Shown here: one piece after another, positions 18,133-34,510 of the stretch
Numbering within the stretch: the stretch's first letter is position 1
Layout of the letters: every line of letters begins with the position of its first letter
From: a virus
Length of the DNA stretch: 64,000 bases
Reading direction: 5' to 3' (one strand)
Virus record (IMG/VR): IMGVR_UViG_3300031965_000011
Span: 1-64,000 of that record
Position numbers and translations under genes: made by a program
Notes under the pieces: model-generated
Told to the model about the DNA's origin: nothing
What the model saw: the letters and a program-made list of their open reading frames with translations, nothing else
Database searches by the model: none

Positions 18133-18181
18133 CGGACCGAGAAGAGGTTAAGGCCGTGGAAGTGGAAGTCAAGGAGACCAA

Positions 18182-18580
18182 ATGAGAACCCTGTTAATCG
18201 CGCTGCTGTGCGCCCTGCCGCTCTTCGCTGGCCAGTCGATCACCAAGTACGAAACGCGGACCACGACCGGCCAGACGGCGACCATCGACGTTTCGACCAT
18301 CCGGCGCGCCAACGATGTCAAGACGGTCACACTGCAAGTCGAGTTGGTCTCCGGTACGGTCAGCGCGTGCTCGGTGCAATTGGAAGGCCGTCTCGACGGC
18401 ATGACTGCGTGGGCCGCGGTCGGTACGGCTGTCGATTGCAATACCGCAGAGCCGGACGGCGTTAAGGGCGGCTCCGTGTCGAGCGTCGCCAGCTTCGACC
18501 AATACAGGGCAAGCCTGTACACGCTGACGGGTACTGATCCCGTGATCGGCATTGGCCTCAAGGTCCAGACCGAGCAGTAG
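18182..18580 (+). CDS. Small protein with a signal-peptide-like N-terminus
   Basis: N-terminus MRTLLIALLCALPLFAGQS. Confidence 0.5.
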   Translation: MRTLLIALLCALPLFAGQSITKYETRTTTGQTATIDVSTIRRANDVKTVTLQVELVSGTVSACSVQLEGRLDGMTAWAAVGTAVDCNTAEPDGVKGGSVSSVASFDQYRASLYTLTGTDPVIGIGLKVQTEQ

Positions 18581-18604
18581 CCCGCGCTCTCACCGGAGCA
18601 ATCC

Positions 18605-21600
18605 ATGAAACTCTTGCGAATCATCGCGCTGCTGTGTGCGGCGACGGGAATCCTGTGCGCCACGACCGTCACCGGGACGCTCGAAAACGGCCTAGGGCAA
18701 CCGTTCAACGGCCGGCTTGTGATCTCCTGGCAGACGTTCGTCGCGCCCGGCGGCCAGGTGGTCGTTGGCGGCCAGCAGCAAGTTCGCGTTGTTGACGGCA
18801 TCTTGGACGTTGACCTTGCGCCCAACATCGGCTCCGATCCTGCCGGCACGTCCTACCGCGTCGTCTACACCGGCAGCGGGTACAACGCTTCGGAAGTCTG
18901 GGAAGTCCCGGACACGTCGAGCGTCGATGTGGCCAGCGTGCGCGTTTCAGTAACCCCCACTCCGGTACTGACGCTCGACCTGAATCAGATCGACACATCC
19001 ACGGCCGTCGATAACTACCACCTCGTCTACACTACCGCGGACGGCGTCAAGTGGGCGCTGGACGCGGGCGGCGGCGGATCGATGATCGTCACCGAAAGCG
19101 ACGGGTCTCCTTCTGTCGACCCGGCGACGACGCTGGAATTCCTGGCTTCCGAGTTCGTCGTCACCGACCAAGGCTCGGGCGTGGCGCGGGCGGCCCTTGG
19201 CGTCGTTCCCGAAGCTAAGATTGATGCGACGATTGCGCGCGACTCGGAGCTGCATAGCCAATCGCACGTTCTCGACGGCGCCGACCATACCGTTAGCGGC
19301 CTCACGGCCGGCCAGGTCTTGCAATCGCTTTCGGCGACCACGTTTGGATTTGACGATTTGGCCGAAGGGCAAGTCACGCAGCACGAAGCCGCGCTGACCG
19401 TCACGGAAAGCCAGATCAGCGACCTGCAAGCCTATCTACTCACCGAGGCGAACAATCTTGAGACCGCAGCGACCGGCATTCTCTCCGGCGAGATCTTCGT
19501 AGGCAACGGACCGGGAGCGGGCGTCTACGTAGCCGTCTCGGGAGACGGCACGTTGTCCTCCGCGGGCGTGCTGGACGTCACGAACGTCACCGGCGCTACC
19601 GGGGCGGACGCCGACAATCTCGGCAATAACAACATCGAGGAGCTGGCCAATGTCGATGTGACAGGCCTAGGCGACGGTGATTGCTTTCTCTACGACGGCG
19701 TCACTGACAACCGCTGGGAGGTTGGCCCCTGTCCTGGCGCAGGCGGCGGCATTACGTCGCTCAATACACTGACGGCCTCGACGCAGACCTTTGCCGACGT
19801 CGACGACACGAACGTAACCCTCGGCATCAACTCGACGAGCAGCACGCACACATTCACCCTTGGCTGGACCGGCGCACTGTCGGACAGCCGCGTTGCCAAC
19901 GACATCACGCTTGACAACCTCACCCAGGTCACGACGCGCAACTACTCGGACCTACAAAGTATTCCGTCCACCTTTGCGCCCTCGGCCCACGTGCTCGACA
20001 GCGCGACCCATACCGTCTCCGGGCAGACCGCCGGCCAGGTGCTCCAGGCCTTGACGGCCACTACCTTTGGCTTTGCGAATCTCGCTGCTGGCCAGGTAAC
20101 CGCGCACGAAGCGGCGCTGACGATCCTGACCAGTCAACTCAGCGGCACGGTCGATATCAGCGCTCAAACGAACCTCTCGACTGACGGTCAAGGAGTCGAA
20201 CTTACCGGCGATCAGCTCTCGATCGAGCTGAATGGCGCGACGCTGGCCAAGGCGGCGGGCGGTCTCAGCGTGTCTAGCGTGGCCGGCGTCACTGGCGCTA
20301 ACGAAGACGACCTGAGCGACAATACCCTGCCGGACCTGTCCGATGTCGTCTCAGCCGCGAACACCAACCGATTCGCGCTCGTCGCCAACGGCACAACCGG
20401 CTACGTAGGGCGCCTGCTCGTCGAGGCGGACATATCGGACCTACAGGCGTATCTCACCGCCGAGGTCAACAACTTAGAAGCGAACGACCCGCCGACGATC
20501 GAGGCGACCGAGGTCTATATCGGCACGGCTTCAGGGGCGGGAGCCTTCGCAGCTCTCTCCGGCGACGTCTCGATGAGTTCCGGCGGCGTGGTCACGGTTG
20601 CCGACAACAGCCACGCTCACGACGGCACGACGATCTCCGCGCTTGACGCAGCCGACACGACGACGGGAGCTTTTGCCGATGCTCGGATTTCGGAGTCCAG
20701 CGTTACTCAGCATGAGGCCGCGCTCTCGCTGACCGAATCGCAGATTAGCGACCTCGATCACTTGACGCTTGCCGAGGTCGAAGCCAACGCCAATAATTTC
20801 ACTGCCCAGCAGGATATCGACGGCGTAGCCGTTCCGCTGCGTTTTGGCGGCTTGACGGCAGACGCTTTCTTCACGGCCTTCTCGGTCGTCGACCCGACAG
20901 CTGCACGCACGGTCACTGTTCCGAACGCCAATAGCGCTTTCGTCCAGCCGATCACCTGCGGCGGCACGGACAAGATCTCAGAGATTGGCGCGGACGGTTT
21001 GCCGGTCTGTTCGGCTGACGATGGCGGCGGCGGCGGACTCAGCAACGCCTACGTCTCAATGACGGATGGTACGACCTCGGCTAACGCTTCCGGCGGCGAT
21101 ACGTTTAAGTTTCGCTCGGCTAACGGGCTGGCCACAGTAGCGGTGCAGAGCAATGACGCCACCCACGGCGACAACCTGCTAGTCACGATCAACGAAGGCA
21201 GCTTCACGTTGTCGAACATTGGCGGGGCGGTGACCGACGGGCAGGTGCCGGACGATATTACCGTTGACCTGGCGACTGTGGCCACGACGGCTAATGCCGG
21301 AGACAGCGCGACAGCCTTCTTCTCTGCCGGGCAGATCGAAGCGGCCCGCGGCGGCACGGGTATTGATTCCGGCGCATTGACCGGCGTGCTGCGCGTGGCG
21401 GCCGGAACGTGGACGGCGGACGCCGGCTTCTCGCACTTGGCCGGGACGGCTGCCGACGCCCAGATACCCAATGACATCACTATCGACCTAGCGGCGCAAG
21501 CGACCGAGGCGCTTGGGGTCGCCCCGGATTCGGTTGCTCTAGGCGGCGACACGACCGGCAATTACGTCGCCGATGTGAACGGCTCGCTGAGCGTAGCGGT

Positions 21601-24600
21601 GACCGGCGCGGACGAAGAGACCGCGACCAAGGTCGTCGCCTTCGACTACAGCCAAACGCTCGCTGGAAATCCAGCGCTCAATGCCGAAGAAGCGGTCTTC
21701 TCGACCGATGGCGCCGGCGGCGCGGCCGTCCTCATCGAAGGTTCGGTGGCGGATGCTTTCGAGGGCCTATACCTCTTCCCCGACGTCACGGGCGCGGATG
21801 CCACGCGGGTGCTTGCTTACAACGAGCAGTCGCTCTCGGGCGACCTTGGCGGCACGATCGCCTCGCCGACGGTCGTGGATAATTCGCACGCGCACGACGG
21901 GACGACCATCAGCGCGCTCGACGCGGGCGATACAACTACGGGATCGTTTGCCGACGGTCGAATCAGCCAGTCAAGCGTTACCCAGCACGTAGCGGCCATC
22001 GACCATGACGCGCTACTCAACTTCGCCGCCGACGAGCACGTTGCCCATAGCGGCGTGACGATTACCGCGGGCGCTGGTCTTGGCGGCGGCGGCGACATCG
22101 CTTCGTCCTTCTCGCTGAGCGTCGCATCGCAAGAGGCCAATTTCCTGACCGACGGCGGCGCGACCTCACTGACCTGCGGAGCCGGCAACCCCGGAAAGAT
22201 GCAGGTGATGGACGACGGCACCATCGAGTACTGTGATGGCGCCGCAACCCCGAATCTGCGGGTATTTGATCCGACAGCCTCAGGCGCCGATGACCTTGGC
22301 TCTGGAGATCCTGGCGCGAACGGCATCATGGTCCGCACGGCGCTCAACACGACCGTGGCGCGGACGCTGACCGGCGACGCGGAAATCGTCGTCACTAACG
22401 GCGACGGCGTGGCTGGCGCCCCAACGCTAAACATTGCGGCAAGCATCGCTCGCGATAGTGAGTTGCCGACCCTGGCCAGCGGCACGGGCGTCGCCGTCAC
22501 AGGCGGACCGGCCTACACCGCGGCCTTTGATTTCTCGGACGCTGGCGCGGATCCCGCGCTAGGCTCCGAAGAGTGTCGTTTCTCGAACGAGGGAGCCTCG
22601 GCTGGCGGTTGGGTTTGCGAGGGCTCGACAGCCGACACGATCGAGACGCGTTTCCGCGTGACGGACCCGACCTCGACAGACAAGGTAATCACCTTCCCCG
22701 ACGCTACGGGCGAAGTGTCCCTTCTTGGCCAATCGATTTCCGACGCCGAAGTAGAAGACGACATCACGCTCACAAACCTTACGCAGGTCACCACGCGTCT
22801 GTACTCCGACCTGCAAAGCATCCCGAGCACGTTCGCTCCCTCGGCTCATGCGCTAGTTGGAGCTGACCACACCGCGAGCGGACTGACCACCGGACACGTC
22901 GTACGCGCGACGGGCGCGACCACTTTCGCTTGGCAGCAACTCGCATTTGCCGACCTCTCGGGCACCGCGACGGTTGTTCTCGACAGCGAGAGCCCTGCGG
23001 CTGGAGACATCGACGGGACATTTGCGGCAGGACTGACGATCAACGCTAACTCGGTTGAGCTGACCACGGACACCACGGGCAATTATGTCCAGCAGGTCGC
23101 CGACGGCACAGGCATCGACGGCTCGGTCAACTCAGAAGGCGGCACCTACACGCCGACACTTGACCTGACCGAAGTCAACAACGTCACTTTCGGCGACAAC
23201 ACGCTCGCAACCATCACGCACACGATCGACCCGACCGGGACGACTAGTCCGGTTTGGTCTTACTCGGACGGCGTGGCGAACCTGTCTGCTGGAGCCCTGC
23301 AGGTGGGCGGTACTCCTGTCCTGACGGCATCTCCTTTCGGGGCGACGATTGACGACACCGAGCTAACCGCGGAGGACTTCGGCGACTTCACCAACGCCGG
23401 GGGTGAAGACGGCTTCACCTTGGACACGGACGTTGTTTCTGCGAACGAGTTGGACGCCGCAGGCGTTGAGGCAGAGCTTGAGGCGGTACTCGACCTACAG
23501 GACCTGCAAGGCGCGGTGACCGACGCTCAAGTCCCGGATACGATCACAGCGTCCAATTACCTACTGCTCGCGGGCGGCACGCTGACGGGTCAACTGGTCG
23601 CCGATAACCTCGGCATCGAGTTCGAAGACTCCGACACGAACCCAGCCTGCGCGGCCGGCAACTACAACATCTTCGCCGACCTCAGCGAAACGACGCTCAA
23701 AAAGTGCATCAATGGAACCGTCAGTGATCTGGACACGGGCGGCGGATCGGGCGATGCGGTCACTGTGAACGGCGTGGCCGTCGACACGACCGCGGATCTC
23801 GACGACACGGCCACGGTCTCTTGGGCGCTCGTGGACGGCGGCGCTGGCGGACCAGACCAAGCACGGGCGTCCGTCGTCGCTGACTCCATCGGACCCGCGC
23901 AGATCGACGAGACCGGGACTTACGATTTCAGCGCGGGAGCGATGACGCTGCCCTCTGGTACGCAAGTCGGCACGGGAACCACGCCGTTCAACCTCACCGG
24001 GTTCACCGACGACGCAGCACCCTCCGCTCCGGGCGCAGCGAATCAATTCACTTGGTACCACGACCGCCCGACCGGGATGCCAGCCTTCATCCTCAACGGC
24101 GGCTCGGCAACGCTGCTGGAGACCGACACCCACGCAAGCGAGCACCTGGAAAACGCTGCCGACGAAATCCTGGTCGAGAACCTCGGCACGGCGTGTACCG
24201 AGAACCAGATCCCCAAGGCCAACGCTACGGGAGGCATTGTTTGCGCGACGGATGAAACCGGCGGGGGCGCCGGCGCGGACGAAAACTACCAAGAATCATT
24301 CACGTCGCAAACCTCTGTCACCGCCACCGGCGCGGAGCACGGCTTCGGCCACGAAAAGCTAGTCGTCGCAGTCTACGACAACGCCTCTCCCAAGAAGCTG
24401 ATCCAGCCCGCTAGCGTCACGATCAACACCAGTACGTTCGACGTCGTGGTGACTTTCGCCGTGGCCCAGAGCGGCACGCTGGTAATCGCAGGATCGGCAA
24501 CCGCGGGCGGCGGTTCGCTGACAGTCGAAGAAGCGGATGCAGCGCCGTCAATCTCGAGCGTTTCCACGATCCAGTTTGACCAAGCTGACGGGTTCACGGT

Positions 24601-25309
24601 GACCGATGAAACCGGCGGCCAAATACAAGTCGACCTGACGCTGGCCGATGCGCATATTCCGAATGACATCACTATTGATCTGGCGACTCTTGCCACGACG
24701 GCTAACGCTGGGGACTCAGCGACATCCTTCTTCCCGACTGGCACGCTAGAAGATGCGCGCCTCAGCGCCAATGTCTCGCTGCTCGGCCAAGAGGTCGGCA
24801 GCGCGGAATTAGTCGCCGAGGATTTTGGCGATTTCACTTGTGACGGCCTCGCGGCTGGCTGCACTCTTGACACGGACTTCATCTCCGAGGCTGAGTTGGC
24901 ATCCGAGGGCGACCTGGAAACCCAGATCGGGACCAACATGGCGTCGGAGGCTGAAGTGCCCAGCCTGCAAGCCCCCGAGACGATCTCCTGGGCCATCTCC
25001 GACCCGGCGACGGCGGACTCAGGGAATTTGCAATGGTTAGCGGCCAAGGGCGTGACGATCACCCAAGTGGACTGCTCGACTGATGTCGGCACAGTCACGA
25101 TTCAGCTCGACGAACGGACTAAGACGACGCCTAACACGAGCGGCACGGATGTGCTGACGGCTCCACTGGTTTGCGACAGCGATAACGAAACAACTACGAG
25201 TTTCACGAACGCGGTCATCGCGGACGCCGCTTTGCTCAGCCTCGATATTGATGCTGTCGCGTCCAGCCCGACTCAGGTAAGGATTCATGTTGAGTACACG
25301 ATTAATTAG
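18605..25309 (+). CDS. Giant (2234 aa) repeat-rich tail-fibre-like protein with a signal-peptide-like N-terminus
   Basis: N-terminus MKLLRIIALLCAATGILCATT. Multiple diverged internal repeats (DNSHAHDGTTISALDA.DTTTG.FAD.RIS.SSVTQH x2; SIPSTFAPSAH..D.A.HT.SG.T.G.V x2-3; IPNDITIDLA..ATTANAGDSAT.FF x3). Confidence 0.7.
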   Translation: MKLLRIIALLCAATGILCATTVTGTLENGLGQPFNGRLVISWQTFVAPGGQVVVGGQQQVRVVDGILDVDLAPNIGSDPAGTSYRVVYTGSGYNASEVWEVPDTSSVDVASVRVSVTPTPVLTLDLNQIDTSTAVDNYHLVYTTADGVKWALDAGGGGSMIVTESDGSPSVDPATTLEFLASEFVVTDQGSGVARAALGVVPEAKIDATIARDSELHSQSHVLDGADHTVSGLTAGQVLQSLSATTFGFDDLAEGQVTQHEAALTVTESQISDLQAYLLTEANNLETAATGILSGEIFVGNGPGAGVYVAVSGDGTLSSAGVLDVTNVTGATGADADNLGNNNIEELANVDVTGLGDGDCFLYDGVTDNRWEVGPCPGAGGGITSLNTLTASTQTFADVDDTNVTLGINSTSSTHTFTLGWTGALSDSRVANDITLDNLTQVTTRNYSDLQSIPSTFAPSAHVLDSATHTVSGQTAGQVLQALTATTFGFANLAAGQVTAHEAALTILTSQLSGTVDISAQTNLSTDGQGVELTGDQLSIELNGATLAKAAGGLSVSSVAGVTGANEDDLSDNTLPDLSDVVSAANTNRFALVANGTTGYVGRLLVEADISDLQAYLTAEVNNLEANDPPTIEATEVYIGTASGAGAFAALSGDVSMSSGGVVTVADNSHAHDGTTISALDAADTTTGAFADARISESSVTQHEAALSLTESQISDLDHLTLAEVEANANNFTAQQDIDGVAVPLRFGGLTADAFFTAFSVVDPTAARTVTVPNANSAFVQPITCGGTDKISEIGADGLPVCSADDGGGGGLSNAYVSMTDGTTSANASGGDTFKFRSANGLATVAVQSNDATHGDNLLVTINEGSFTLSNIGGAVTDGQVPDDITVDLATVATTANAGDSATAFFSAGQIEAARGGTGIDSGALTGVLRVAAGTWTADAGFSHLAGTAADAQIPNDITIDLAAQATEALGVAPDSVALGGDTTGNYVADVNGSLSVAVTGADEETATKVVAFDYSQTLAGNPALNAEEAVFSTDGAGGAAVLIEGSVADAFEGLYLFPDVTGADATRVLAYNEQSLSGDLGGTIASPTVVDNSHAHDGTTISALDAGDTTTGSFADGRISQSSVTQHVAAIDHDALLNFAADEHVAHSGVTITAGAGLGGGGDIASSFSLSVASQEANFLTDGGATSLTCGAGNPGKMQVMDDGTIEYCDGAATPNLRVFDPTASGADDLGSGDPGANGIMVRTALNTTVARTLTGDAEIVVTNGDGVAGAPTLNIAASIARDSELPTLASGTGVAVTGGPAYTAAFDFSDAGADPALGSEECRFSNEGASAGGWVCEGSTADTIETRFRVTDPTSTDKVITFPDATGEVSLLGQSISDAEVEDDITLTNLTQVTTRLYSDLQSIPSTFAPSAHALVGADHTASGLTTGHVVRATGATTFAWQQLAFADLSGTATVVLDSESPAAGDIDGTFAAGLTINANSVELTTDTTGNYVQQVADGTGIDGSVNSEGGTYTPTLDLTEVNNVTFGDNTLATITHTIDPTGTTSPVWSYSDGVANLSAGALQVGGTPVLTASPFGATIDDTELTAEDFGDFTNAGGEDGFTLDTDVVSANELDAAGVEAELEAVLDLQDLQGAVTDAQVPDTITASNYLLLAGGTLTGQLVADNLGIEFEDSDTNPACAAGNYNIFADLSETTLKKCINGTVSDLDTGGGSGDAVTVNGVAVDTTADLDDTATVSWALVDGGAGGPDQARASVVADSIGPAQIDETGTYDFSAGAMTLPSGTQVGTGTTPFNLTGFTDDAAPSAPGAANQFTWYHDRPTGMPAFILNGGSATLLETDTHASEHLENAADEILVENLGTACTENQIPKANATGGIVCATDETGGGAGADENYQESFTSQTSVTATGAEHGFGHEKLVVAVYDNASPKKLIQPASVTINTSTFDVVVTFAVAQSGTLVIAGSATAGGGSLTVEEADAAPSISSVSTIQFDQADGFTVTDETGGQIQVDLTLADAHIPNDITIDLATLATTANAGDSATSFFPTGTLEDARLSANVSLLGQEVGSAELVAEDFGDFTCDGLAAGCTLDTDFISEAELASEGDLETQIGTNMASEAEVPSLQAPETISWAISDPATADSGNLQWLAAKGVTITQVDCSTDVGTVTIQLDERTKTTPNTSGTDVLTAPLVCDSDNETTTSFTNAVIADAALLSLDIDAVASSPTQVRIHVEYTIN

Positions 25310-27802: not shown

Positions 27803-27821
27803 TTATCGTGAACGGCGACTA

Positions 27822-28853
27822 ATGAGCAAATCAGTAATATCTCTGATCGCATTGACTCTGCTGGGAGCCGGGAGTCTATGGCCGCAGACGTTGATGAACG
27901 GCTTCCCCGATATCGTCAAGGTCACCGACGGAGGCACTCCGCCAAGCGGCGCGGTGAGGATCTGGGCAAATGATAGCGACCAGATCGTAACCACCGATTC
28001 TTTAGGGACGGACACGGTTCTCGGCGAGAGCGGCGGAGGCGCCACAAACGCGGAGGTCTTTTTCGCCGCGCAGACATCCGTCACGATCACCGCCGCTACG
28101 CACGGTTTTGACCATGCCAAACTCGGCGTCGTCTGTTACGACAACGCAAGTCCGAAGGCTCAGATAGTCCCGCTTGGGGTCACCGTAGACGCTAGCACGT
28201 TCCAGGTCGTTGTAACCTTCTCGGCTGCCGAGACCGGCTCGTGCGTTGTCGCCGGCGGCTCCGGGTCCAGTGAGCCATACGAAGAGTCGTTCACCACGCA
28301 AACCAGTATCACGGTCACCGGCGCGGAGCACGGCTTCGGCCACGCCCGGCTGGCGGTATTTGTCTATGACGACGCGGACCCGAAGGCGCTAATGACGCCG
28401 CTCGGCGTCACGATCGATCCTGACGCTTTCGCTGTCGTCGTCACGCTCTCGGTCGCGGATTCCGGCTCCGTCGTCGTGATGGGCGGCGCAGGCGGCGCCC
28501 CTGAGAGCGGGGCCATTACGATGACCTTCGACGGTCGAGGGGCGGACATCGCCACCGGGGTAAGCAATCCGGCGGTCGCCCGCAGATCGGGGGTCGTCAC
28601 AGGGGCGACGATCCTGTCGTACCAGACGTGCTCCATCAGTATCGATGTTTGGGTTGACTCTTACGCCAATCACCCGCCCACTGATGCGGACTCAATCACC
28701 TCGGCCGCGCCGATCACTTTGAGTTCGGCGAACAAGAATACACCGGCCCTTACAGGCTGGACGACCGCATTCAATGCCGGCGACGAGTTCGTTTTCAACG
28801 TAGATTCAAACACCGGCTGCGAAAACGTCGTGGTCGTCCTGGAGACCAACTAA
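27822..28853 (+). CDS. Fibre-like protein with two copies of a 65-aa Ig-like module, signal-peptide-like N-terminus
   Basis: Start moved to ATG 27822 (MSKSVISLIALTLLGAGSLWPQTL). The repeats FAAQTSVTITAATHGFDHAKLGVVCYDNASPK... and FTTQTSITVTGAEHGFGHARLAVFVYDDADPK... also occur in the 2234-aa protein. Confidence 0.55.
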   Translation: MSKSVISLIALTLLGAGSLWPQTLMNGFPDIVKVTDGGTPPSGAVRIWANDSDQIVTTDSLGTDTVLGESGGGATNAEVFFAAQTSVTITAATHGFDHAKLGVVCYDNASPKAQIVPLGVTVDASTFQVVVTFSAAETGSCVVAGGSGSSEPYEESFTTQTSITVTGAEHGFGHARLAVFVYDDADPKALMTPLGVTIDPDAFAVVVTLSVADSGSVVVMGGAGGAPESGAITMTFDGRGADIATGVSNPAVARRSGVVTGATILSYQTCSISIDVWVDSYANHPPTDADSITSAAPITLSSANKNTPALTGWTTAFNAGDEFVFNVDSNTGCENVVVVLETN

Positions 28854-28854
28854 G

Positions 28855-30120
28855 ATGCGCTTTCTTATCCTGCTGCTGTTCTGCGCTCCTCTGGCGGCCC
28901 AGGACACGACCTGCGATTCAGGCGATGTTCTTTGGGTATCCGAAAGCGTCAACGCGGACGTGGACATCGCCGCAGGCGGAGCCGAGTATAACAACGCCGC
29001 GGCTCCGTTTGGCATCCAGGGAGCGTTCGACGCCGAGAACCTGTGCGTTGGGTCGATTGTGCGCATCCTCGACGGCGCGAACGAATACGGCCCAAGCTCT
29101 ACGTCATGGACGAATCGCGTTGATACGACCAAGAAAATTGTCGTCGCTGTTGACCGAGACGGGGCGTTCACGAGCCACGTACGAGTGGAGGGCTGGGCCG
29201 ACTCGTCTACGCGCTGCGGCACGTCAGGGAATCAGTGGACGGCGGCGTGTCCGGTCTATCTAGACTTTGATCGCGACAACATCACCGGCGACGATGGTTT
29301 TGAATTTGCCGCGACCGGCGACGGCTACATTTTTGAATGGATCGGGGTCAAGAATACCGACGCCCAAGGCTTCGCGGTCGATACCAGTTCGACCAACGTG
29401 ATGTTTCGCAGCGTGGCCGTGGTCAACTCTACAGGGTCGGCGATCGGCGGCCCCCAGAACTCGGCGTCGACTTGGTACCTGTATGACAGCTACTTCTCCA
29501 ACGTGGGCACGGGCGGTTCCGCGGCAATCCAAGCTGCCGGCTTCTCTGCATTGATCGCCAACAACGTGATCGACTGCGAACCGGGCGGCTCCCCGGTAGC
29601 CAGTCAAGATGGGTTACACGTTCCATTCAACCTGAACGCTCCGACCATCGTCAACAACGTGTTCCGCAACTGCGACTCGGGCCTATGGCTCGAGCAGTCC
29701 GACGCGGCAAGGGTCGTCAGAAACACCTTCGAGAATCACACAAACGCCTGCATCCACACGTCCAACGCAGCGGTCAAGACAATGGCCGCCATGAATGCAT
29801 TCACCGGTTGCGCCAACTCAATTCTGGGTGGAACGAATCATTATCTGCTGGCTGACAACGTCTACTCCGCGGGCACCGGGCAGTCTAACGCGGGGCAAGT
29901 GATGAGCGACGCGGACGACGCCCAGAACAACAACGGGGAGACATTCTCGGGAGCGTCCTGCGTTTTCGCGGATACGACGGACGAAAGTATGGCCTCCGGT
30001 TGCGTGCTCAGCAAATCGCCCCCTGGCGGCGAACTGGCGTCACAGGATGCGATCGTTCCAGGGATCGCACGCAAGAGCTTAGGCGGAGGGGGAACGATCA
30101 GCTATGGAGGGTTTCAGTGA
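28855..30120 (+). CDS. Second beta-helix repeat protein, signal-peptide-like N-terminus
   Basis: N-terminus MRFLILLLFCAPLAAQDTT. Repeats NNVIDCEPGG, VNNVFRNCDSGLWLEQS, VRNTFENHTNACIH. Confidence 0.55.
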   Translation: MRFLILLLFCAPLAAQDTTCDSGDVLWVSESVNADVDIAAGGAEYNNAAAPFGIQGAFDAENLCVGSIVRILDGANEYGPSSTSWTNRVDTTKKIVVAVDRDGAFTSHVRVEGWADSSTRCGTSGNQWTAACPVYLDFDRDNITGDDGFEFAATGDGYIFEWIGVKNTDAQGFAVDTSSTNVMFRSVAVVNSTGSAIGGPQNSASTWYLYDSYFSNVGTGGSAAIQAAGFSALIANNVIDCEPGGSPVASQDGLHVPFNLNAPTIVNNVFRNCDSGLWLEQSDAARVVRNTFENHTNACIHTSNAAVKTMAAMNAFTGCANSILGGTNHYLLADNVYSAGTGQSNAGQVMSDADDAQNNNGETFSGASCVFADTTDESMASGCVLSKSPPGGELASQDAIVPGIARKSLGGGGTISYGGFQ

Positions 30121-30986
30121 GCAATAAGATCAACATCGCAATTCTCACTCTCGCGGCGGCGGCCTTACTGTTTGGTCAAACACTGACCAACGGCTACCTG
30201 CGGTTAGTCGAGGTCGCGGCTCCCGGCACTCCGGCGTCAGGCGAAGGCGTGATCTACGTCAAAACCGACGGCACCTTCGCGGGGAAGAACGACGCCGGGG
30301 TGGAGACGGTGTTGGGGGCAAGCGGGGCCTTCGATCCCTTGGACGAGGATTCTATCTGGCTCCGAGAAGAGTTTGCTTCCGGCGCCGAGGCAACAGACGG
30401 AGATCTTGGAGATCTTGGCTGGGAAGTTATACGCTCCGGCGCCGGAGTGCCCGTGGGACAAGCGGGCGAAGCAAACCACCCCGGCATATGGAGACTGGTT
30501 ACGGGAACGACTTCGGATCAATACACGCTTGTCAATGTTTCGAACAATCGGGCCTCAATCATCGCTCTCAGCAGCAGCACGTTTGAATCGAAATTCATCG
30601 CGCGGCAAAGTTCCTGCGCCGACGTTGGAGTTAACATTGGTTGGGTTGCCGGAGGGGCTCACGCCGTCTCGCCTACGACCGGCATCTACGTACGTCTGGA
30701 CACCGCCGATGCGGACACGAACTATCAATTCGTAGTGGGAGACGGCACGGAGCAAATTAACGACACTGCCGTAGCCTGCAATACGAATTGGAATCTGTTT
30801 CGGCTTTATTCGACGGACGGCGGGACGACGATGAGCCTCGATATCAACGGCTCTAACGTTGCCACGGAAACGCTAAATATCCCCACTGCGGTCTTGTCTC
30901 CAGCTTTCCAAGTGCAAACGAGGACGACGGCGGATAAGACCCTTGATCTAGATTTCTTCGCTTTCGAGACGACATTGACGCGGTAA
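30117..30986 (+). CDS. Fibre-like protein sharing its N-terminal module with 27822..28853
   Basis: GTGA overlap start (VSNKINIAILTLAAAALLFGQTL). QTLTNGYLRLVEVAAPGTPASGEGVIY...ETVLGASG parallels QTLMNGFPDIVKVTDGGTPPSGAVRIW...DTVLGESG. Confidence 0.5.
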   Translation: MSNKINIAILTLAAAALLFGQTLTNGYLRLVEVAAPGTPASGEGVIYVKTDGTFAGKNDAGVETVLGASGAFDPLDEDSIWLREEFASGAEATDGDLGDLGWEVIRSGAGVPVGQAGEANHPGIWRLVTGTTSDQYTLVNVSNNRASIIALSSSTFESKFIARQSSCADVGVNIGWVAGGAHAVSPTTGIYVRLDTADADTNYQFVVGDGTEQINDTAVACNTNWNLFRLYSTDGGTTMSLDINGSNVATETLNIPTAVLSPAFQVQTRTTADKTLDLDFFAFETTLTR

Positions 30987-33900
30987 TGCGAATCTTACTC
31001 CTAGCCCTGGCTCTTGCCCTCCCGCTCTTCGGCGCGACGGAGTCGCAGCTCCCCGACACGGTCGCAGCGCAGAGCGGATACACGGACTGTACCGTCGACG
31101 AGATCGACGAAGACCCCGATTCGCCCGATGCGTCTTGGTGCGACGTCGGCGGGGCGAACAACGTCTCGACCACGGTACGGGTGACCTTCCCGACGCCGAC
31201 GCCGCTTCCAACGGACGGCGCGGGGCTGCAAGAGTTCCGCGTCCAGTGGCGAAAAACAAATCACTCTACGGACCCGACTTGCGCTGTCGATCTTTACGAA
31301 GACGGCTCCGAGATCACGGCGGGCGTCGTTGGCTCGACGGCGGTTTCTTCCACCACCGGTGTCGTCGTCAGCGGCACATGGGACTCAGCGTCGTTGTCAG
31401 ACAGTACCGGAGCTGGAGTCGAAGCGCTTGTTACTTGCACGCCCGGCGGCGGCGCGGCGGGCAACAGGGCGTCAGGAGAAGTCGGCGCGGTGGAGTGGGT
31501 TGTTGACTACACGACGCCCCCCAGCGGGCCACAGTCGCTGCAACTGACGACCGGCGACACGATGAGCTTTACCCCGCCGGAGACGGCAACGTGGCAGAGT
31601 CTCGGGGCCGCACGCGTAGAGATCGCGCTTGACCTGAATACGTGCTCCGGGGAAACGACGTTCTTCAAGCTGGGTAACTGGCGGCTGCGGTGCTCCACGG
31701 CGTCCAACCTGGTTTACGGCACCGATGTAGACGACGGCAATCTCGCCATCACCGGTAAGACCCAAATACTCATCCGGATGCAACGCGATCCGAGTCAAAC
31801 CCTCGCGTCCTCCAATGGGGCCACGCCGGTTGCACATTTGGAAGTGTGGGCGAACGACGGCACGGGGAGAGTCGCGCTGGCTACCAATGACGCCGCCTCT
31901 GCGATTGACGCTTCCTCGATCCAGAGCTTCGCAGTTGGAACCTCGGACATCGAGTTCCACTGGATCAAGGTTTACTCGACGCTGACCGAAGTTGGAGCGA
32001 ACGCACCCGTGCCCGACCCGCATGGCGTGGGGGATCTAGCGAACTGGGATTTCGAGGGCGTGCTGACCGACTCCGGCCCGGACTCGATGACCTTCTCGGC
32101 TTCGGGCACGGGTTTCACGACTACGCCGACGTTTAACCCGGTTGCCGACCCCACGGTGGACGCCGATCCGTTCTGGATGCAAGCCCCCTCGGTACGGGCG
32201 GGAGCGGAGATCACGCTATCGGCGGAACGCTCGATCTCGCATGACGACGTGGATGGATTGACGTGCGTGTGGAGCGATCAGACCGGCGGCTCAGGTCCCA
32301 CCGCGATTCTATTCACCGGCTCGACGACGGCTTGCACGACGACGGCGGTGTTCCCGACTTTCGGCGACTTCGATTTACGGCTCGTGGTGACGGACAACTC
32401 GGCGGGAACCGGAACGGCGAACGTGACGGTCGGAGCCGTGGCGACCGACTCAAATCGAATCGTGGTCATGGATAATGACCCGTTCGCCTTCACGCTCGGC
32501 GAACACATCCAGTGGGGTCAATCGGCTTGGCCGTTTCTACCTGAACGAACCTATAAGATGGCCGAGACCTTCGCCGCGAATCGGTCGGCTGCAAGCTGGC
32601 GTACCTTCGACACAGGCACGGTGACGGTCAGCAACGGTTCGCCAACGGTGGAAGGCGCCGGCGGAACCGACTTCGCCAATCTTATCTGCTCTGGGGGTAC
32701 GACCCCTGACGGCGGCGCGGGCGGTCCTAATAAGCTCGTCATTCGCGATTCCGGCGGCGTCTATTGGGTGAACAACATCGCCGCATGCGTTGACGCCGAC
32801 ACTTTGACGTTGAACGCGAATTGGAATAAAACCGGCGAAGGCGGACTGTCTTACTCCTATTGGACCGAAGCAGAAAATTCGCTCTGGATCAACGGGTCGG
32901 AGAACGAGAACTATTACGACAACGTGTGGGCTTACTACACGCTGTGCAAGACTTCTGGTCTTCAGTGGGCCTGCACGGACGCGGCGGAACTAGCGGCGCT
33001 GTGGTGGGAAATGCCGTTCATTGCAAACGGCATGGCCATGACTGGTCCTTCCGGCGACAGTCTGATTATGCAGCCGCGCTTGAATGCCCTAATTGGCATC
33101 ATGCTTTGGGCAAAGGAGCAAGGGACGGAAGCGAGCATCTTTCCCGGTATTGAAGATTACATCGAGTTCTTCGATTTCCTCAGAATCGTCCATTCGCTGA
33201 ACTATTGCGCCGGCGACCCCCGCGAAGCCTGGTACGTCGGGATGTGGCTCTCGCTGGCGATGGAGTTAGACCCGGACGCCACGCGCGTCTCGAACTACCA
33301 AAGCATTCTCACGGCGGCAATGGACGCCTCCGCTGGAGCTTCAGGCGGCGACATTGACCCCGATATATGCCGTCATCCTTCCGGCGTCTGGCACGGCTAC
33401 GACGCCACTGCGGGCGCCAGCACCGTTTCGGTAACGAATGGCTCCAACGAGTTCGTGTGCGCCTCGTCGGGAGCTTGTAGCTGGGACGCGGGCGACGTTG
33501 GTTCGTGGGTTCAGATCGGCGTACTGAACGACCGGGATCACGTAACGGACGTCGGGCAATATCAAATCACGGCGCAGGATGCGGACAAGCTGACGGTCAC
33601 TCCGAACTTTGCCGGAACGACCGGCTCGGGCCGCTGGTACTTCATCAAGGCGGTCAACACATACACCTTCCAGGCGTTGACGAATGCGATGCCGAACATC
33701 GCGCTCGACTGGCAATACCGTCACGGCTTCAGCGACCGCCGGGACGTGATCGTCGAGGGAACGGACGGAATTGTTGTGAACAACTATCGCGCTCCCTTGC
33801 GCGGTCTGTACGTGCTGAACGATGACAACGCCGGATGCTCGGCCTCCATCGCGGCGGAAACGGTTAACAGCGCAAACAATTGTCAGTTCGACCCGGCGCA

Positions 33901-34510
33901 GACAGCATCGAGCCAAAGATTTCTAATCGCTGAAATCGCTGGAGCCATGGCGCTCGGCGTCAAGTACGGACGGCAGATCGACGACGCCAACACGGCCTCC
34001 CGCATAGCTCAACTGGACGACATGATGGGCGCGACATTCGGCGCCCTGGGAGGCCCTGACAGCGATACCGATTGGGCGAGCGAGTACAACGATTCCGGCG
34101 CGACGTTCACGCAGGGCGGCAACGGCAAGCAGAAGAACTTCGGCTTCTGCTGCGGCGTCGGCGGCGCGAGCGCCTGGGACGCGGAAAGACTAGGCGGGCT
34201 GGCTGCCGAGGATCTCGTCAGCTACAGCGTGCCGCTCGATATCGGTTCAGTGTCGATGGCGACGAAAGCCAGCTGCACGCTCTACGAACCGCGCAGCTTC
34301 TCGCGCGTGGTGAACGAGCAAACCGGCTCGACGTGCGCGGTGACAGGAGACAAGAGGCAAGGCGACCACCTGGCCAAGATCGAATACAAGGACGCGATGG
34401 ACTCGGTTCTTCAAACCGATTTTGTGATGACTTCGGCCCCGATTGCAAGCAGCACGGGCTCCACGGTGGAGGGCTCGGCCACGTTCAGCGGGAGCTTCGC
34501 GATCCAGTGA
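30986..34510 (+). CDS. Large (1174 aa) protein with a signal-peptide-like N-terminus and a PKD-like domain
   Basis: N-terminus MRILLLALALALPLFGATES. LTCVWSDQTGGSG...FGDFDLRLVVTDNSAGTGTANVTV is PKD-like. Confidence 0.55.
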   Translation: MRILLLALALALPLFGATESQLPDTVAAQSGYTDCTVDEIDEDPDSPDASWCDVGGANNVSTTVRVTFPTPTPLPTDGAGLQEFRVQWRKTNHSTDPTCAVDLYEDGSEITAGVVGSTAVSSTTGVVVSGTWDSASLSDSTGAGVEALVTCTPGGGAAGNRASGEVGAVEWVVDYTTPPSGPQSLQLTTGDTMSFTPPETATWQSLGAARVEIALDLNTCSGETTFFKLGNWRLRCSTASNLVYGTDVDDGNLAITGKTQILIRMQRDPSQTLASSNGATPVAHLEVWANDGTGRVALATNDAASAIDASSIQSFAVGTSDIEFHWIKVYSTLTEVGANAPVPDPHGVGDLANWDFEGVLTDSGPDSMTFSASGTGFTTTPTFNPVADPTVDADPFWMQAPSVRAGAEITLSAERSISHDDVDGLTCVWSDQTGGSGPTAILFTGSTTACTTTAVFPTFGDFDLRLVVTDNSAGTGTANVTVGAVATDSNRIVVMDNDPFAFTLGEHIQWGQSAWPFLPERTYKMAETFAANRSAASWRTFDTGTVTVSNGSPTVEGAGGTDFANLICSGGTTPDGGAGGPNKLVIRDSGGVYWVNNIAACVDADTLTLNANWNKTGEGGLSYSYWTEAENSLWINGSENENYYDNVWAYYTLCKTSGLQWACTDAAELAALWWEMPFIANGMAMTGPSGDSLIMQPRLNALIGIMLWAKEQGTEASIFPGIEDYIEFFDFLRIVHSLNYCAGDPREAWYVGMWLSLAMELDPDATRVSNYQSILTAAMDASAGASGGDIDPDICRHPSGVWHGYDATAGASTVSVTNGSNEFVCASSGACSWDAGDVGSWVQIGVLNDRDHVTDVGQYQITAQDADKLTVTPNFAGTTGSGRWYFIKAVNTYTFQALTNAMPNIALDWQYRHGFSDRRDVIVEGTDGIVVNNYRAPLRGLYVLNDDNAGCSASIAAETVNSANNCQFDPAQTASSQRFLIAEIAGAMALGVKYGRQIDDANTASRIAQLDDMMGATFGALGGPDSDTDWASEYNDSGATFTQGGNGKQKNFGFCCGVGGASAWDAERLGGLAAEDLVSYSVPLDIGSVSMATKASCTLYEPRSFSRVVNEQTGSTCAVTGDKRQGDHLAKIEYKDAMDSVLQTDFVMTSAPIASSTGSTVEGSATFSGSFAIQ

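Follow-up and report, generated by a model that had tools for sequence, protein, structure and literature searches.

Eight consecutive genes that follow the gpJ-like tail fibre gene in the window analysed here (the whole 64,000-nucleotide stretch of viral DNA) all begin with N-termini that resemble export signals and, judged from their sequence, look genuine. We tentatively favour, with a probability of roughly 0.45, the view that they form the receptor-binding and glycan-acting cassette of a temperate Bryobacterales phage, exported through Sec with cleavable signals and serving a dual role. This is close to the dual use that an initial annotation of this DNA had listed as the third of its alternatives. 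Tail fibres and tailspikes are assembled in the cytoplasm and normally lack export signals, and in our literature search no tailed phage with a virion protein exported through Sec came to light as a precedent. The genes on which the argument turns are as follows.

7534-10401, TMP gene of the tail-tip module upstream of gpJ
12832-13659, gene for a 275-aa protein, positional counterpart of genes for DUF2460 (PF09343) that precede gpJ in the related loci L006, L090 and L179
13660-18132, plus strand, gpJ-like central tail fibre/host-specificity protein, 1490 aa, without a signal peptide
18182-18580, plus strand, O1, 132 aa
18605-25309, plus strand, O2, 2234 aa
25287-26048, plus strand, O3, 253 aa
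26039-27802, plus strand, O4, 587 aa
27822-28853, plus strand, O5, 343 aa
28855-30120, plus strand, O6, 421 aa
30117-30986, plus strand, O7, 289 aa
30986-34510, plus strand, O8, 1174 aa
41443-42462, minus strand, tyrosine integrase (PF00589, E = 6e-19)

The eight ORFs are tightly packed on the plus strand between 18182 and 34510, where the initial annotation had placed them and where our check of the window ORF coordinates found them. The gpJ-like gene closes a conserved tail-tip module, with a Peptidase_M15_4 lysin among the genes upstream of it, and its product has 59 homologues, several with a precomputed PF13550 (Phage-tail_3) assignment. The tyrosine integrase indicates that the phage is temperate. 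Relatives of the gpJ-like protein number 439 in GTDB, and the best 80 of them belong almost all to Bryobacterales, Bryobacteraceae or Solibacteraceae; on this sequence relationship the host is a member of the Bryobacterales (soil Acidobacteria), as an early hint of an acidobacterial host had suggested. In the closest relative (P0002), gpJ is 83% identical over aa 1-1239, the last ~250 aa are missing, and the slot after gpJ holds an ordinary signal-less tailspike, from which it follows that the block occupies an RBP slot. The block genes overlap or abut and continue the tail operon, their composition is like that of the tail genes (GC3 of 0.738 against 0.744), and no promoter or terminator signal within the block rose above shuffles.

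The N-termini were scored with our own crude n/h/c heuristic, under which a segment must be net positive in charge, reach a Kyte-Doolittle mean of 2.0 or more over 10 residues, contain 12 or more consecutive uncharged residues and offer a small -3/-1 site. The heuristic was positive for all eight block ORFs, as against 2 of the 47 other ORFs in the window (Fisher p = 3.7e-8) and 3 of 667 plus-strand ORFs lying upstream of gpJ homologues across about 80 related loci (p = 1.6e-16), which sustains the original observation of Sec-type signal-like N-termini on every one of them. The segments concerned, with a slash at the predicted cut, are listed below together with the domains discussed later.

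18182-18232, plus strand, O1 aa 1-16/17, predicted signal peptide, MRTLLIALLCALPLFA/GQ (sequence and heuristic)
18605-18661, plus strand, O2 aa 1-19, predicted signal peptide, MKLLRIIALLCAATGILCA/TT (sequence and heuristic)
18662-18940, plus strand, O2 aa 20-112, mature N-terminal collar-type beta-sandwich (AF2 and Foldseek)
25287-25343, plus strand, O3 aa 1-19, predicted signal peptide ending SVCAAA/QL, a canonical A-x-A site
26039-26095, plus strand, O4 aa 1-19, predicted signal peptide ending LLAASCAA/K (sequence and heuristic)
27822-27884, plus strand, O5 aa 1-18/21, signal-like segment (sequence and heuristic)
28855-28899, plus strand, O6 aa 1-15, predicted signal peptide, MRFLILLLFCAPLAA/QD (sequence and heuristic)
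30117-30176, plus strand, O7 aa 1-20, predicted signal peptide ending AAALLFG/QT, GTG start
30986-31036, plus strand, O8 aa 1-17, predicted signal peptide, MRILLLALALALPLFGA/T
31037-31516, plus strand, O8 aa 18-177, inserted 'DEDPDSPD' module, missing from the P0060-P0070 homologues
31517-34510, plus strand, O8 aa 178-1174, body with LamG-like, PKD and helical-repeat domains and a C-terminal beta-sandwich

The c-regions of O1, O7 and O8 depart from the canonical pattern by an L or F at -3, and that of O5, whose cleavage site is weak, is the poorest of the eight. Misassigned start codons, or eight hydrophobic N-termini brought together by chance, could produce such a pattern as an artefact, which we consider very improbable. 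The starts of O5 (ATG 27822) and O7 (GTG 30117) do lie inside longer mechanical TTG ORFs (from 27774 and 30000, respectively), and O5 and O8 have no clear Shine-Dalgarno sequence. Against this, the other six starts are preceded by a GGAG-type Shine-Dalgarno at -7 to -15 (GGAG at -9 for O1 and at -10 for O2; GGAGG at -11 for O7, whose GTG overlaps the O6 stop as GTGA), and proteins of 132, 2234, 253, 587 and 343 aa were also called independently on the same contig in other samples. The check for downstream starts that had been proposed favours the annotated ones, as for most of the eight one must go 36 to 66 codons in to reach the next in-frame start clear of the hydrophobic core, nearer ones existing only in O5 (TTG/ATG at codons 24-25) and O3 (TTG at codon 21). 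Moreover, the signal region is conserved among homologues, changes in signal codons are synonymous only (4 of 4 SNPs in O2; the O1 SNPs relative to a second sample are likewise synonymous), and the probability of a chance occurrence is about 1e-8 or less.

The modules first ascribed to the bodies of these proteins could be upheld in part. The right-handed beta-helix of O6 is solid (PF13229 Beta_helix, E = 2.7e-11; NosD, E = 3e-5; TIGR04247 far under its cutoff), while four others stay below threshold in Pfam: the weakly LamG/ConA-like body of O3 (PF13385, E = 1.3e-3, below the gathering score), the weak beta-helix of O4 (PF13229, E = 2.7e-3, below the gathering score), the Ig-like match of O5 and PKD in O8. 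For O8, the structural check recovered LamG-like and PKD folds, since the AF2 model of its body (pLDDT about 70-90) gave both matches by Foldseek. O3, which overlaps the O2 stop by 23 nt, matches phrog_4390 (E = 1e-5), and O4 has a Pro-rich linker and a possible lipobox, AAS/C at Cys17. O5 matches phrog_35197 (E = 1.9e-15) and phrog_10330 'virion structural protein' (E = 5.5e-6); its middle is a repeat of O2 aa 1859-1977, and its aa 22-71 are 40% identical to aa 21-70 of O7, a shared N-terminal mature motif. The small mature part of O1 had no Pfam, PHROG or NCBIfam match. Cysteine makes up 1.31% of the eight proteins as against 0.47%, a higher value that did not generalise to relatives, and no obvious PEP-CTERM or T9SS-like C-terminus was found in any of them.

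O2 is the repeat fibre that it had been taken for, with Stf/gp37-style repeated motifs that include DNSHAHDGTTIS twice and the HxH-type motif DNSHAHDG, also twice. Its first mature domain was modelled by AF2 (pLDDT 89) as seven strands and a short helix, strand 1 beginning at residue 20, directly past the predicted cut. The best Foldseek matches in the PDB were the Bxb1 tail tip (9d93, E = 9e-5), lambda gpStfN (9e7m_Ta, E = 2.7e-3, TM-score on target of 0.62) and cyanophage neck and tail fibres, TM-scores being moderate (0.44-0.72) for a fold that is a small beta-sandwich. BFVD yielded 36 matches at E <= 1e-3, and the annotation of many was tail-fibre or minor-tail protein. gpStfN acts as a tail collar (PMC12617516), and the models support a first mature domain of O2 of this lambda side-fibre type, which attaches to the tail in lambda; among the eight, only O2 has a recognisable virion-attachment domain. 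The likeness to lambda (Ur-lambda) Stf extends to the position of the gene directly after that of the central fibre J, to an N-terminal beta-sandwich of ~90 aa with a short helix, and to a long repetitive shaft that has HxH-type motifs and varies at its distal end. No similarity to isolated phages was found at the sequence level, and no Tfa-like chaperone was recognised. The collar domain of lambda Stf forms a 12-copy ring at the tube/tip junction, and the collar-domain group that we compared also takes in Bxb1 tail-tip chains, the neck and tail fibres of cyanophage A-1(L) and actinophage minor tail proteins. In these known collar fibres the domain starts from residue 1 without a signal, unlike in O2 and about 90% of its family, where a Sec-type signal stands ahead of it.

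This family, defined by the O2 N-domain, comprises 1428 representative clusters. Among the best 150 of them, 110 are strictly signal-like, 25 weakly so, 13 leave no space for a signal and 2 lack one, so that about 90% place a diverged but canonical signal (A-x-A before Q) directly before the domain; in the metagenome set 77 of 83 are signal-like. Pairwise identity is 16% in the segment before the domain as against 48% in the domain itself, and the cleavage region shows an excess of Ala at -3 and -1 and of Gln at +1. The rare signal-less members (P0169, P0191, P0200, P0213, P0217, P0218 and P0235) have their Met exactly at the predicted mature N-terminus. C-termini in the family include PTR, Peptidase_S74, Gp34_trimer, collagen and pectate-lyase domains, along with many tail-fibre PHROGs. 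A comparison with fibre N-termini in related phages, suggested at the outset, found signal-plus-collar genes again after gpJ in L005, L009, L012, L014, L017, L090 and L173, and in group B prophages such genes adjoin TerL. The signal phenomenon is therefore not peculiar to this phage: by sequence comparison, a predicted signal, a collar domain and a variable fibre, in that order, define a large family, whose members occur in the tail modules of prophages and in a small number of chromosomal islands that are free of phage.

These patterns bear on whether the eight proteins are ordinary cytoplasmic fibres, whose hydrophobic N-termini serve uncleaved as helices for assembly or anchoring, or go unrecognised by Sec at the late stage of infection. 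Every known tailed-phage fibre assembles in the cytoplasm, and the position of the block, its operon structure, the collar domain and several imperfect c-regions all fit such an explanation. Phage DGR-target proteins, many with C-type-lectin folds, have likewise been reported to lack signal peptides, in contrast to their surface-displayed counterparts in bacteria (PMC6199706). An assembly helix should, however, keep its sequence and contact geometry, and here only the n/h/c character and A-x-A before Q are kept; the signal-less homologues that begin at the cut show the helix to be dispensable for the fold and for collar binding; and it is hard to see how a soluble virion would carry twelve exposed Leu-rich helices on each collar. 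In addition, the O8 signal is common to a chromosomal family of signal-bearing proteins, and in an island beta-helix protein (below) a Tat signal stands in for the Sec type. We therefore regard ordinary fibres as unlikely, and the non-cleaved, group-specific anchor helices put forward as a first alternative are disfavoured on the same grounds.

The body of O8 has a close chromosomal counterpart. Its signal resembles those of the P0060 family (MRLLILVLLSIAPLFGG/QS and MKKLLLVLVLALPLFGG), and its body is 94% identical to P0060 at the amino-acid level (95% at the nucleotide level over window positions 31532-34429), the match beginning exactly at the predicted mature N-terminus of P0060, QSLQLTTG. 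Relative to P0060, O8 has kept its signal despite the insertion of a 160-aa module precisely at the point of cleavage. In many modular phage proteins (P0073-P0086) the same 'DEDPDSPD' module, which AF2 modelled poorly in O8 (pLDDT about 25-65), stands without a signal at the extreme N-terminus (MATERLAPDA...IDEDPDSPDASWL), and the RHS protein P0072 contains it twice. The gene of one of the modular proteins, P0075, adjoins a Mu-type portal gene. P0060 and P0061 sit in three-gene islands with cellular flanking genes, and this phage-free island is conserved in two genomes, between housekeeping genes. It encodes a 561-aa fibre with signal and collar, a 449-aa Tat beta-helix protein and a signal-bearing protein of 1000-1011 aa. 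In the 449-aa protein, which is beta-helix-like in sequence and has a weak match to a PHROG hydrolase, the Tat motif (TRRGFLG) is canonical; as a Tat signal is used here in place of the Sec type, export, and not a particular helix, is the property conserved.

Such islands, in which cells keep these proteins without any virion, together with the near-identity of the O8 body to an island gene, also suit an explanation in which the eight are exported and never enter the virion, which would rely on gpJ alone. They would then be tail-fibre-derived cargo acting on the envelope or matrix of the producer: as surface fibres or adhesins like the MAT fibres of Bdellovibrio, in EPS trimming like WceF, in receptor masking or destruction for superinfection exclusion, or in EPS clearance before lysis. 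The phage is temperate, the extra ~250-aa C-terminus of its gpJ could be a receptor-binding domain of its own, in an unrelated SU10-like podophage two large signal-bearing proteins are encoded midway through the structural module, and WceF, which leaves through Tat, is a trimeric beta-helix active on EPS (PMC7949094). We hold this to be a serious possibility, at rather less than even odds. It is weakened by the size of the block (16.3 kb, about 22% of a genome of ~74 kb), which is heavy for a non-structural load, by the substitution of the block for the tailspike of the closest relative instead of an addition to it, and by the collar domain of O2, whose known job is tail binding and whose mature end is that of the signal-less members. 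No obvious outer-membrane targeting signal was found in the eight, with a lipobox only possibly in O4. The block also lacks a moron signature, with no promoter or terminator of its own, tail-like composition, continuation of the tail operon and bodies of the tail-fibre class. Of the exported adhesin/depolymerase island that had been proposed as a second alternative, export is thus retained and the moron-like island is not.

Under the receptor-binding and glycan-acting cassette that we prefer, O2 would be a side fibre resembling lambda Stf, with a collar domain at the N-terminus, O3 to O8 would be accessory proteins of LamG, beta-helix and PKD type, and each of the eight would carry a genuine, cleavable Sec-type signal peptide. 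From the gene arrangement, the block would be transcribed as the end of the late (tail) operon. The pre-proteins would pass through Sec across the inner membrane and signal peptidase I would cut before the first mature domain, as sequence statistics and family comparison suggest, and folding and trimerisation would probably take place in the periplasm. Once lysis mixes periplasm and cytoplasm, mature O2, being indistinguishable from the signal-less family members, could dock via its collar domain on finished tails, while the collar-less beta-helix, LamG and PKD proteins, free or envelope-associated, might bind the EPS that surrounds the lysing cell, or cut it.

Parallels for parts of this scheme exist. 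The mosaic adhesive trimer (MAT) fibres of Bdellovibrio bacteriovorus, encoded by chromosomal genes of the predator and displayed on its own surface, also have a signal, then a conserved beta-rich N-domain (~110-130 aa), a trimeric tail-fibre-like shaft and swappable tips, with an S74 chaperone in a subset, and the construct from which they were produced for EM supplied a PelB leader (PMC10769870). The genes described here differ in lying in prophage tail operons and a few phage-free islands, and the N-domains are likened by description only. WceF of Pantoea stewartii is an exported phage-tailspike fold acting on the producer's own EPS (PMC7949094), and it leaves by Tat, as does the 449-aa island protein beside the O8 homologue. 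Unlike the window proteins, WceF is not phage-borne but belongs to a cluster for EPS biosynthesis, and no homology of O4 or O6, with their Sec-type signals, to WceF or to the island protein was detectable. The lom, bor and cor products of lambdoid phages and llp of T5 are signal-bearing envelope proteins encoded beside the receptor-binding genes of temperate or T5-like phages. The window phage, too, is temperate and has signal-bearing products near its receptor-binding gene. Each of those post-J morons, however, is one small outer-membrane protein or lipoprotein that brings its own expression signals, unlike eight proteins of up to 2234 aa and of tail-fibre class, whose genes are packed head to tail or overlapping and match the tail genes in composition.

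In conclusion, export of these proteins would conflict with the textbook account in which the fibres of tailed phages are made and attached in the cytoplasm, and the class to which they belong is large and apparently undescribed.

The eight consecutive ORFs 3' of the gpJ homologue (O1 to O8) form a block of 16.3 kb, which lies among the following features:

7534-10401, + strand: tape-measure gene, structural module
11743-12831, + strand: Peptidase_M15_4 lysin gene, structural module
12832-13659, + strand: gene for a 275-aa protein, positional counterpart of the DUF2460 (PF09343) gene found 5' of gpJ in three relatives
13660-18132, + strand: gpJ-like gene, 1490 aa
18182-34510, + strand: O1 to O8, with O2 (2234 aa) at 18605-25309, O4 at 26039-27802, O6 at 28855-30120 and O8 (1174 aa) at 30986-34510
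34708-35952: exonuclease gene, bounding the block on the side opposite the gpJ homologue
41443-42462, - strand: tyrosine integrase gene

We recovered the eight + strand ORFs between the gpJ homologue and the exonuclease gene exactly as the initial annotation had listed them, and gene calls on the same contig in other samples agree for all five ORFs that they reach, including an internal ATG in O5. The genes overlap or abut one another, with spacings of 49, 24, -23, -10, 19, 1, -4 and -1 nt from gpJ-O1 through O7-O8 (O2 is therefore the second gene 3' of the gpJ homologue on the same strand, after gaps of 49 and 24 nt), and a GGAG-type ribosome-binding site is present at six of the eight starts. 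Promoter- and terminator-like sites in the block did not exceed those in shuffled sequences, in a search with a sigma-70 consensus that may not fit Acidobacteria, and composition is close to that of the tail genes (GC 0.614 vs 0.616, GC3 0.738 vs 0.744). On these tests of promoter, terminator and composition the block bears no marks of a moron, and its arrangement fits a tail operon that simply continues. Genes for replication and recombination lie on the - strand of the window: those for primase, DnaB, RecT, the tyrosine integrase and an SNF2-methylase fusion. On this strand, one 762-aa ORF at 48399-50687 unites SNF2-type helicase domains and an N6/N4 DNA methylase domain. In the tail lysin (11743-12831), Peptidase_M15_4 (VanY-like) is fused to a DUF4406 / nucleoside 2-deoxyribosyltransferase-like domain; the counterpart in the compared locus L179 has a lysozyme instead of the M15 peptidase, with the DUF4406 partner unchanged.

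Using a heuristic of our own, which predicts signals from sequence (net positive charge, a 10-residue Kyte-Doolittle mean of at least 2.0, an uncharged stretch of at least 12 residues and a small -3/-1 site), we found that the Sec-type character ascribed to all eight N-termini holds. The heuristic is positive for 8/8 block ORFs compared with 2/47 other ORFs of the window (Fisher p = 3.7e-8) and 3/667 tail-module ORFs in ~80 related loci (Fisher p = 1.6e-16), so the clustering of signal-like N-termini is genuine and far above chance. In all eight, the net charge ahead of the hydrophobic core is +1, the best 10-residue Kyte-Doolittle mean is 2.58-3.27 and starts at residues 2-9, the uncharged stretch reaches at least 13 residues and there is at least one candidate cleavage site. 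The quality of these sites is uneven: O3 (AAA|Q) alone is textbook, those of O2, O4 and O6 are passable, L is needed at -3 in O1, O7 and O8, and O5 is weak. By eye, O4 alone comes near the lipobox [LVI][ASTVI][GAS]C, with L-A-A-S-C17 and Ala rather than Leu at -3. Post-gpJ ORFs elsewhere are signal-bearing at a rate of ~6-10%, as counted by a crude and conservative caller that undercounts where starts are ambiguous, and the window's eight in a row are extreme among the loci seen. An artefact of start choice or chance is very improbable in our judgement. True starts downstream, which the initial annotation had envisaged, are disfavored for most of the ORFs, in which the next in-frame start past the hydrophobic core lies 36-66 codons in, although it is closer in O5 (codons 24-25) and O3 (codon 21). 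As a separate sign of periplasmic folding we considered cysteine enrichment (1.31% vs 0.47% in the window, p = 5e-6), and rejected it, as signal-bearing and signal-less post-gpJ ORFs of relatives did not differ and no Cys pair is conserved in the N-domain family of O2.

Searches with the gpJ homologue found 59 relatives in the protein collection, Phage-tail_3 being present in several, and 439 in GTDB species genomes, of which the best 80 come almost entirely from MAGs of Bryobacterales, Bryobacteraceae or Solibacteraceae. Genomes with related gpJ loci include those of Paludibaculum and Bryobacteraceae; the weak hint of an acidobacterial host taken from the signal ends was thus borne out. The host is therefore an acidobacterium belonging to Bryobacterales. 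These relatives often lie within Mb-scale bacterial contigs, and the window itself encodes an integrase (41443-42462); the phage is temperate. Given the prevalence of the gpJ family (overwhelmingly Bryobacterales among the 439 matches; GTDB loci L009-L088), one may also ask whether some of its copies have become domesticated, as GTA-like or tailocin-like elements. In most relatives, the gene 3' of gpJ encodes a signal-less protein of ~900 aa, with NCTSP tailspike-type domains in the two Pfam-annotated cases, and in the closest relative, whose gpJ shares 83% identity across 1239 aa, an ordinary signal-less pectate-lyase-type tailspike comes next. Since the relatives' signal-less tailspike is found in the same position, the eight-gene block occupies the slot of the receptor-binding protein, and it substitutes for the usual tailspike rather than adding to it. 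When L179:6723-7271 in this closest relative is compared with window 18133-18182, the C-terminal ~250 aa of the window's gpJ are missing from the relative's; the receptor-binding cassette has been exchanged whole, gpJ C-terminus included.

An AlphaFold2 (AF2) model of O2 residues 1-142, built from a 36-sequence alignment (pLDDT 89), has a leader helix, then a seven-strand beta-sandwich from residue 20, then a short helix. The best Foldseek matches of this N-domain in the PDB are the Bxb1 tail tip (9d93, chains L and K) and the XM1 neck, followed by Ur-lambda gpStfN (9e7m_Ta, a 94-residue N-domain) and the neck and tail fibres of cyanophage A-1(L). All of these are virion-attachment domains, which suggests the same for the modeled domain of O2, with the reservation that the fold is small and the TM-scores moderate. 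The collar around the gpV/gpM junction of Ur-lambda consists of twelve gpStfN domains (PMC12617516). Among predicted viral structures (BFVD), 36 matches reach E <= 1e-3, and many of these have a tail-fibre or minor-tail annotation. The shaft of O2 is made of long repeated motifs, including one of HxH type, and O5, which matches a 'virion structural protein' PHROG, has a segment in common with O2 and an N-terminal motif in common with O7. HMM and hhalign searches for the collar domain in O1 and O3-O8 found none, leaving O2 as its sole carrier. The receptor-binding or glycan-acting modules proposed for the other bodies were recovered in part: the beta-helix of O6 is solid, and LamG in O3, the beta-helix in O4 and PKD in O8 stay below threshold. 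Structure prediction of the O8 body did recover LamG-like and PKD folds (AF2/Foldseek), these being the only matches and no enzyme class appearing among them; the full-length model has a mean pLDDT of 69 and its inserted module is poorly modeled. Searching the PDB by sequence gave no match for O2, O4, O6, O8 or the N-domain profile, and NCBIfam nothing useful for the block. By fold, position and architecture, O2 would work like a side fibre of the lambda Stf type.

The family of this N-domain is large, and its members carry signals as a rule. With O2 aa 20-135, that is, without the leader, as query against 1.84 billion representative proteins, 1428 clusters were matched. The 64 best of these 1428 that we inspected have a canonical signal immediately N-terminal to the domain, and of the 150 best, 110 satisfy strict signal criteria and 25 weaker ones, while 13 start too close to the domain to fit a signal and 2 lack one, so that a signal-like leader precedes the domain in ~90% of the closest 150 representatives. 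In one subfamily, 77/83 metagenomic ORFs are signal-like. Pairwise identity is 16% over the 22 residues ahead of the domain (10% is expected from composition alone) and 48% over its first 22 residues, and the family consensus at the cut has Ala at -3 (49%) and -1 (53%) and Gln at +1 (50%), an A-x-A|Q site. The character of the pre-domain segment has thus been kept while its sequence diverged. About 5% of the family is without a signal (P0169, P0191, P0200, P0213, P0217, P0218 and P0235), and in these proteins Met stands directly at the first residue of the domain, which is the predicted mature end of the signal-bearing members. The N-domain has no conserved Cys pair. Among 65 full-length members, the domains present are PTR, pectate-lyase, beta-helix, Peptidase_S74, collagen, Gp34_trimer and K1-lyase_C, and there are many tail-fibre PHROG matches. 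A tblastn search of isolated phages with the N-domain and gpJ gave no match, IMG/VR yielded no close relative by gpJ or the O2 N-terminus, and a further homology search with the N-domain profile returned short fragments only, with no taxonomy attached; with the subfamily alignment, five viral contigs were found in IMG/VR. All genomic contexts described here come from metagenome assemblies and MAGs.

These contexts place the signal-plus-collar genes mostly in prophages. They lie 3' of gpJ in five of the closest related prophages, for example in locus L090 in the order gpJ, signal-less pectate lyase, signal-plus-collar fibre, signal-plus-PTR fibre and endolysin, and they are present in the IMG/VR contigs L173 and L174. 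In L174:6419-10462, a run of three ORFs with signals, of which the first has the collar, precedes a short signal-less collar protein (MTTITDTLYAPNG...), so that both forms are found within one genome. Of two further groups of loci, the first has signal-plus-collar genes in tail-like clusters adjoining housekeeping genes. In the second, from peat and bog prophages, a giant signal-plus-collar protein of 1300-2800 aa is encoded by the first gene at the prophage edge. This giant gene (L116-L165; e.g., L128:9827-17650 and L147:9824-18668) lies directly 5' of the terminase large subunit gene (phrog_2, E = 2.5e-23), which is unusual for a fibre gene, and a HipA-like kinase gene follows in two loci. 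We had considered that the N-domain family might be mainly cellular, and dropped this idea when the ~520-aa partner in the second group proved to be the terminase large subunit, marking prophage edges; only the island in L089 and L178 stood. In the SU10-like podophage L177 (7578-13312), two adjacent genes between those for the capsid and the head-tail adaptor encode large proteins with signals, of 806 and 1103 aa, the second being a 38% homologue of the O8 body.

The island in L089 and L178 links the block to genes outside phages. Both genomes have housekeeping genes on either side of it, and theirs is the sole clearly phage-free context among those seen:

L089:6962-13287 and L178:982-7271: three-gene island encoding proteins of 561 aa (signal and O2-type N-domain), 449 aa and 1000-1011 aa (signal-bearing), plus a 78-aa hydrophobic protein

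The 449-aa protein has a textbook twin-arginine motif (TRRGFLG) and matches a PHROG hydrolase weakly (E 4e-6); compared with O4 and O6, this Tat beta-helix protein showed no detectable homology. The 1000-1011-aa proteins (P0060 and P0061) are close homologues of O8, which itself models as LamG, PKD and helical domains. From residue 178 on, O8 and P0060 are 94% identical as proteins, and their DNA is 95% identical along 2.9 kb; it is window 31532-34429 that matches the last large island gene at 95% DNA identity. P0060 has its own closely similar signal, and the match to O8 starts at its predicted mature N-terminus; relative to P0060, O8 has kept the N-terminal signal and has a 160-aa module placed exactly at the cut. 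The 95% identical segment shows recent exchange between the fibre locus of the phage and host secretome genes. A capture of the O8 body from the host was entertained and set aside, the direction of transfer not being decidable, with the 38% homologue also lying in a podophage structural module. The inserted module (aa 18-177, 31037-31516; AF2 model poor) is a mobile 'DEDPDSPD' module. Many modular phage proteins begin with it and have no signal, and the gene for one of these adjoins a Mu-type portal gene; the RHS-repeat toxin-like protein P0072 contains two copies of the module.

The same phage was present in a second sample (ERZ27256991), from which the window contig differs by 17 SNPs over 20.6 kb. 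Four of these fall in the O2 signal codons and every one is synonymous, which suggests that these codons are under purifying selection. Ten of the 17 lie within 280 bp (18379-18658), a stretch that runs from the O1 3' end across the O1-O2 spacer into the O2 signal codons. These ten are all synonymous or intergenic, and the pattern resembles that of a local recombination tract or a hot spot of mutation. The hydrophobic N-termini could in principle be uncleaved helices that serve as anchors. The Tat signal of the island's 449-aa protein indicates that the property conserved is export, rather than a particular helix, and together with the family pattern, the signal-less starts at the cut, the architecture of O8 and the synonymous SNPs it makes both an uncleaved anchor helix and a wrong start unlikely, the former having perhaps a slim chance. 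The export of the block's proteins that we infer from these sequence patterns is strongly supported.

Based on our results, we favor a dual picture, to which we give a probability of roughly 45%, in which O2 would dock on virions and the rest of the block would act on extracellular polysaccharide (EPS). The block would be expressed late, its products exported by Sec and their signals cleaved, and the proteins would fold in the periplasm and be released at lysis, whereupon O2 could dock on tails and the collar-less proteins could act on the surrounding EPS. Use in the virion is suggested by the position of the block in the receptor-binding slot with loss of the signal-less tailspike, by the collar domain of O2, whose predicted mature end has the same position as the start of signal-less homologues, and by the 16.3 kb devoted to it. 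T4 long fibres and the P22 tailspike can join particles in vitro, which makes it conceivable, in biochemical terms, that attachment follows lysis. A purely non-virion role in the cell envelope is nearly as likely as the dual picture. It draws on the phage-free island and on two precedents, the Bdellovibrio MAT fibres (PMC10769870) and WceF, a Tat-exported EPS enzyme with a tailspike fold (PMC7949094). Beyond the dual picture for this block, we tentatively propose, as a possibility with the odds still against it, a large and hitherto undescribed class of tailed-phage side fibres that would be exported by Sec, processed by signal peptidase, folded in the periplasm and added to finished tails once lysis mixes the compartments. 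The proposed class comprises no fewer than ~1,400 clusters (50% identity) and is frequent among prophages of Acidobacteriota.

There are clear similarities and differences between O2 and known systems. With lambda Stf-type side fibres it shares the N-terminal collar beta-sandwich and the place 3' of the central fibre gene; the key distinction is that those fibres have no export signal and their domain starts from residue 1, while O2 has a 19-residue signal-like leader. MAT proteins, as defined in PMC10769870, have a signal, at once a conserved beta-rich N-domain of ~130 aa, and a fibre with swappable tips; O2 and its family match them in architecture. MAT fibres are surface-localized, and one was produced for electron microscopy with a PelB leader construct (PMC10769870). 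They are chromosomally encoded and displayed on the surface of the producer, in contrast to the window's genes, which are in a prophage tail operon. The block is also unlike lom/bor/cor morons in size, number, class and expression layout. A 2026 survey found signals on 5% of prophage CAZymes (PMC13507307), and no study describing tail fibres with signals in tailed phages came to light in our literature search.

Tail fibres set host range, and some pipelines use the absence of a signal peptide to tell phage proteins from bacterial surface proteins. To our knowledge, tail-fibre models, annotation rules and engineering schemes all assume cytoplasmic folding and attachment with no export signal. 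This rule would be overturned by a large family of collar-domain fibres that carry canonical signals. These fibres occupy the receptor-binding slot in prophages of one of the most abundant soil phyla. An uncultured phage group also gains a concrete host assignment (Bryobacterales). If the fibres do not reach virions, temperate phages would carry large arsenals, derived from tail fibres, for remodeling the cell surface and EPS, and one exchange network would connect phage fibres with the MAT adhesins of Bdellovibrio and EPS enzymes of the WceF type. If they do, phage assembly would have an extracytoplasmic branch, and, should the proposed class be real, an obligatory extracytoplasmic step would belong to the morphogenesis of tailed phages and chromosomal 'orphan' fibre islands could supply fibres in trans.
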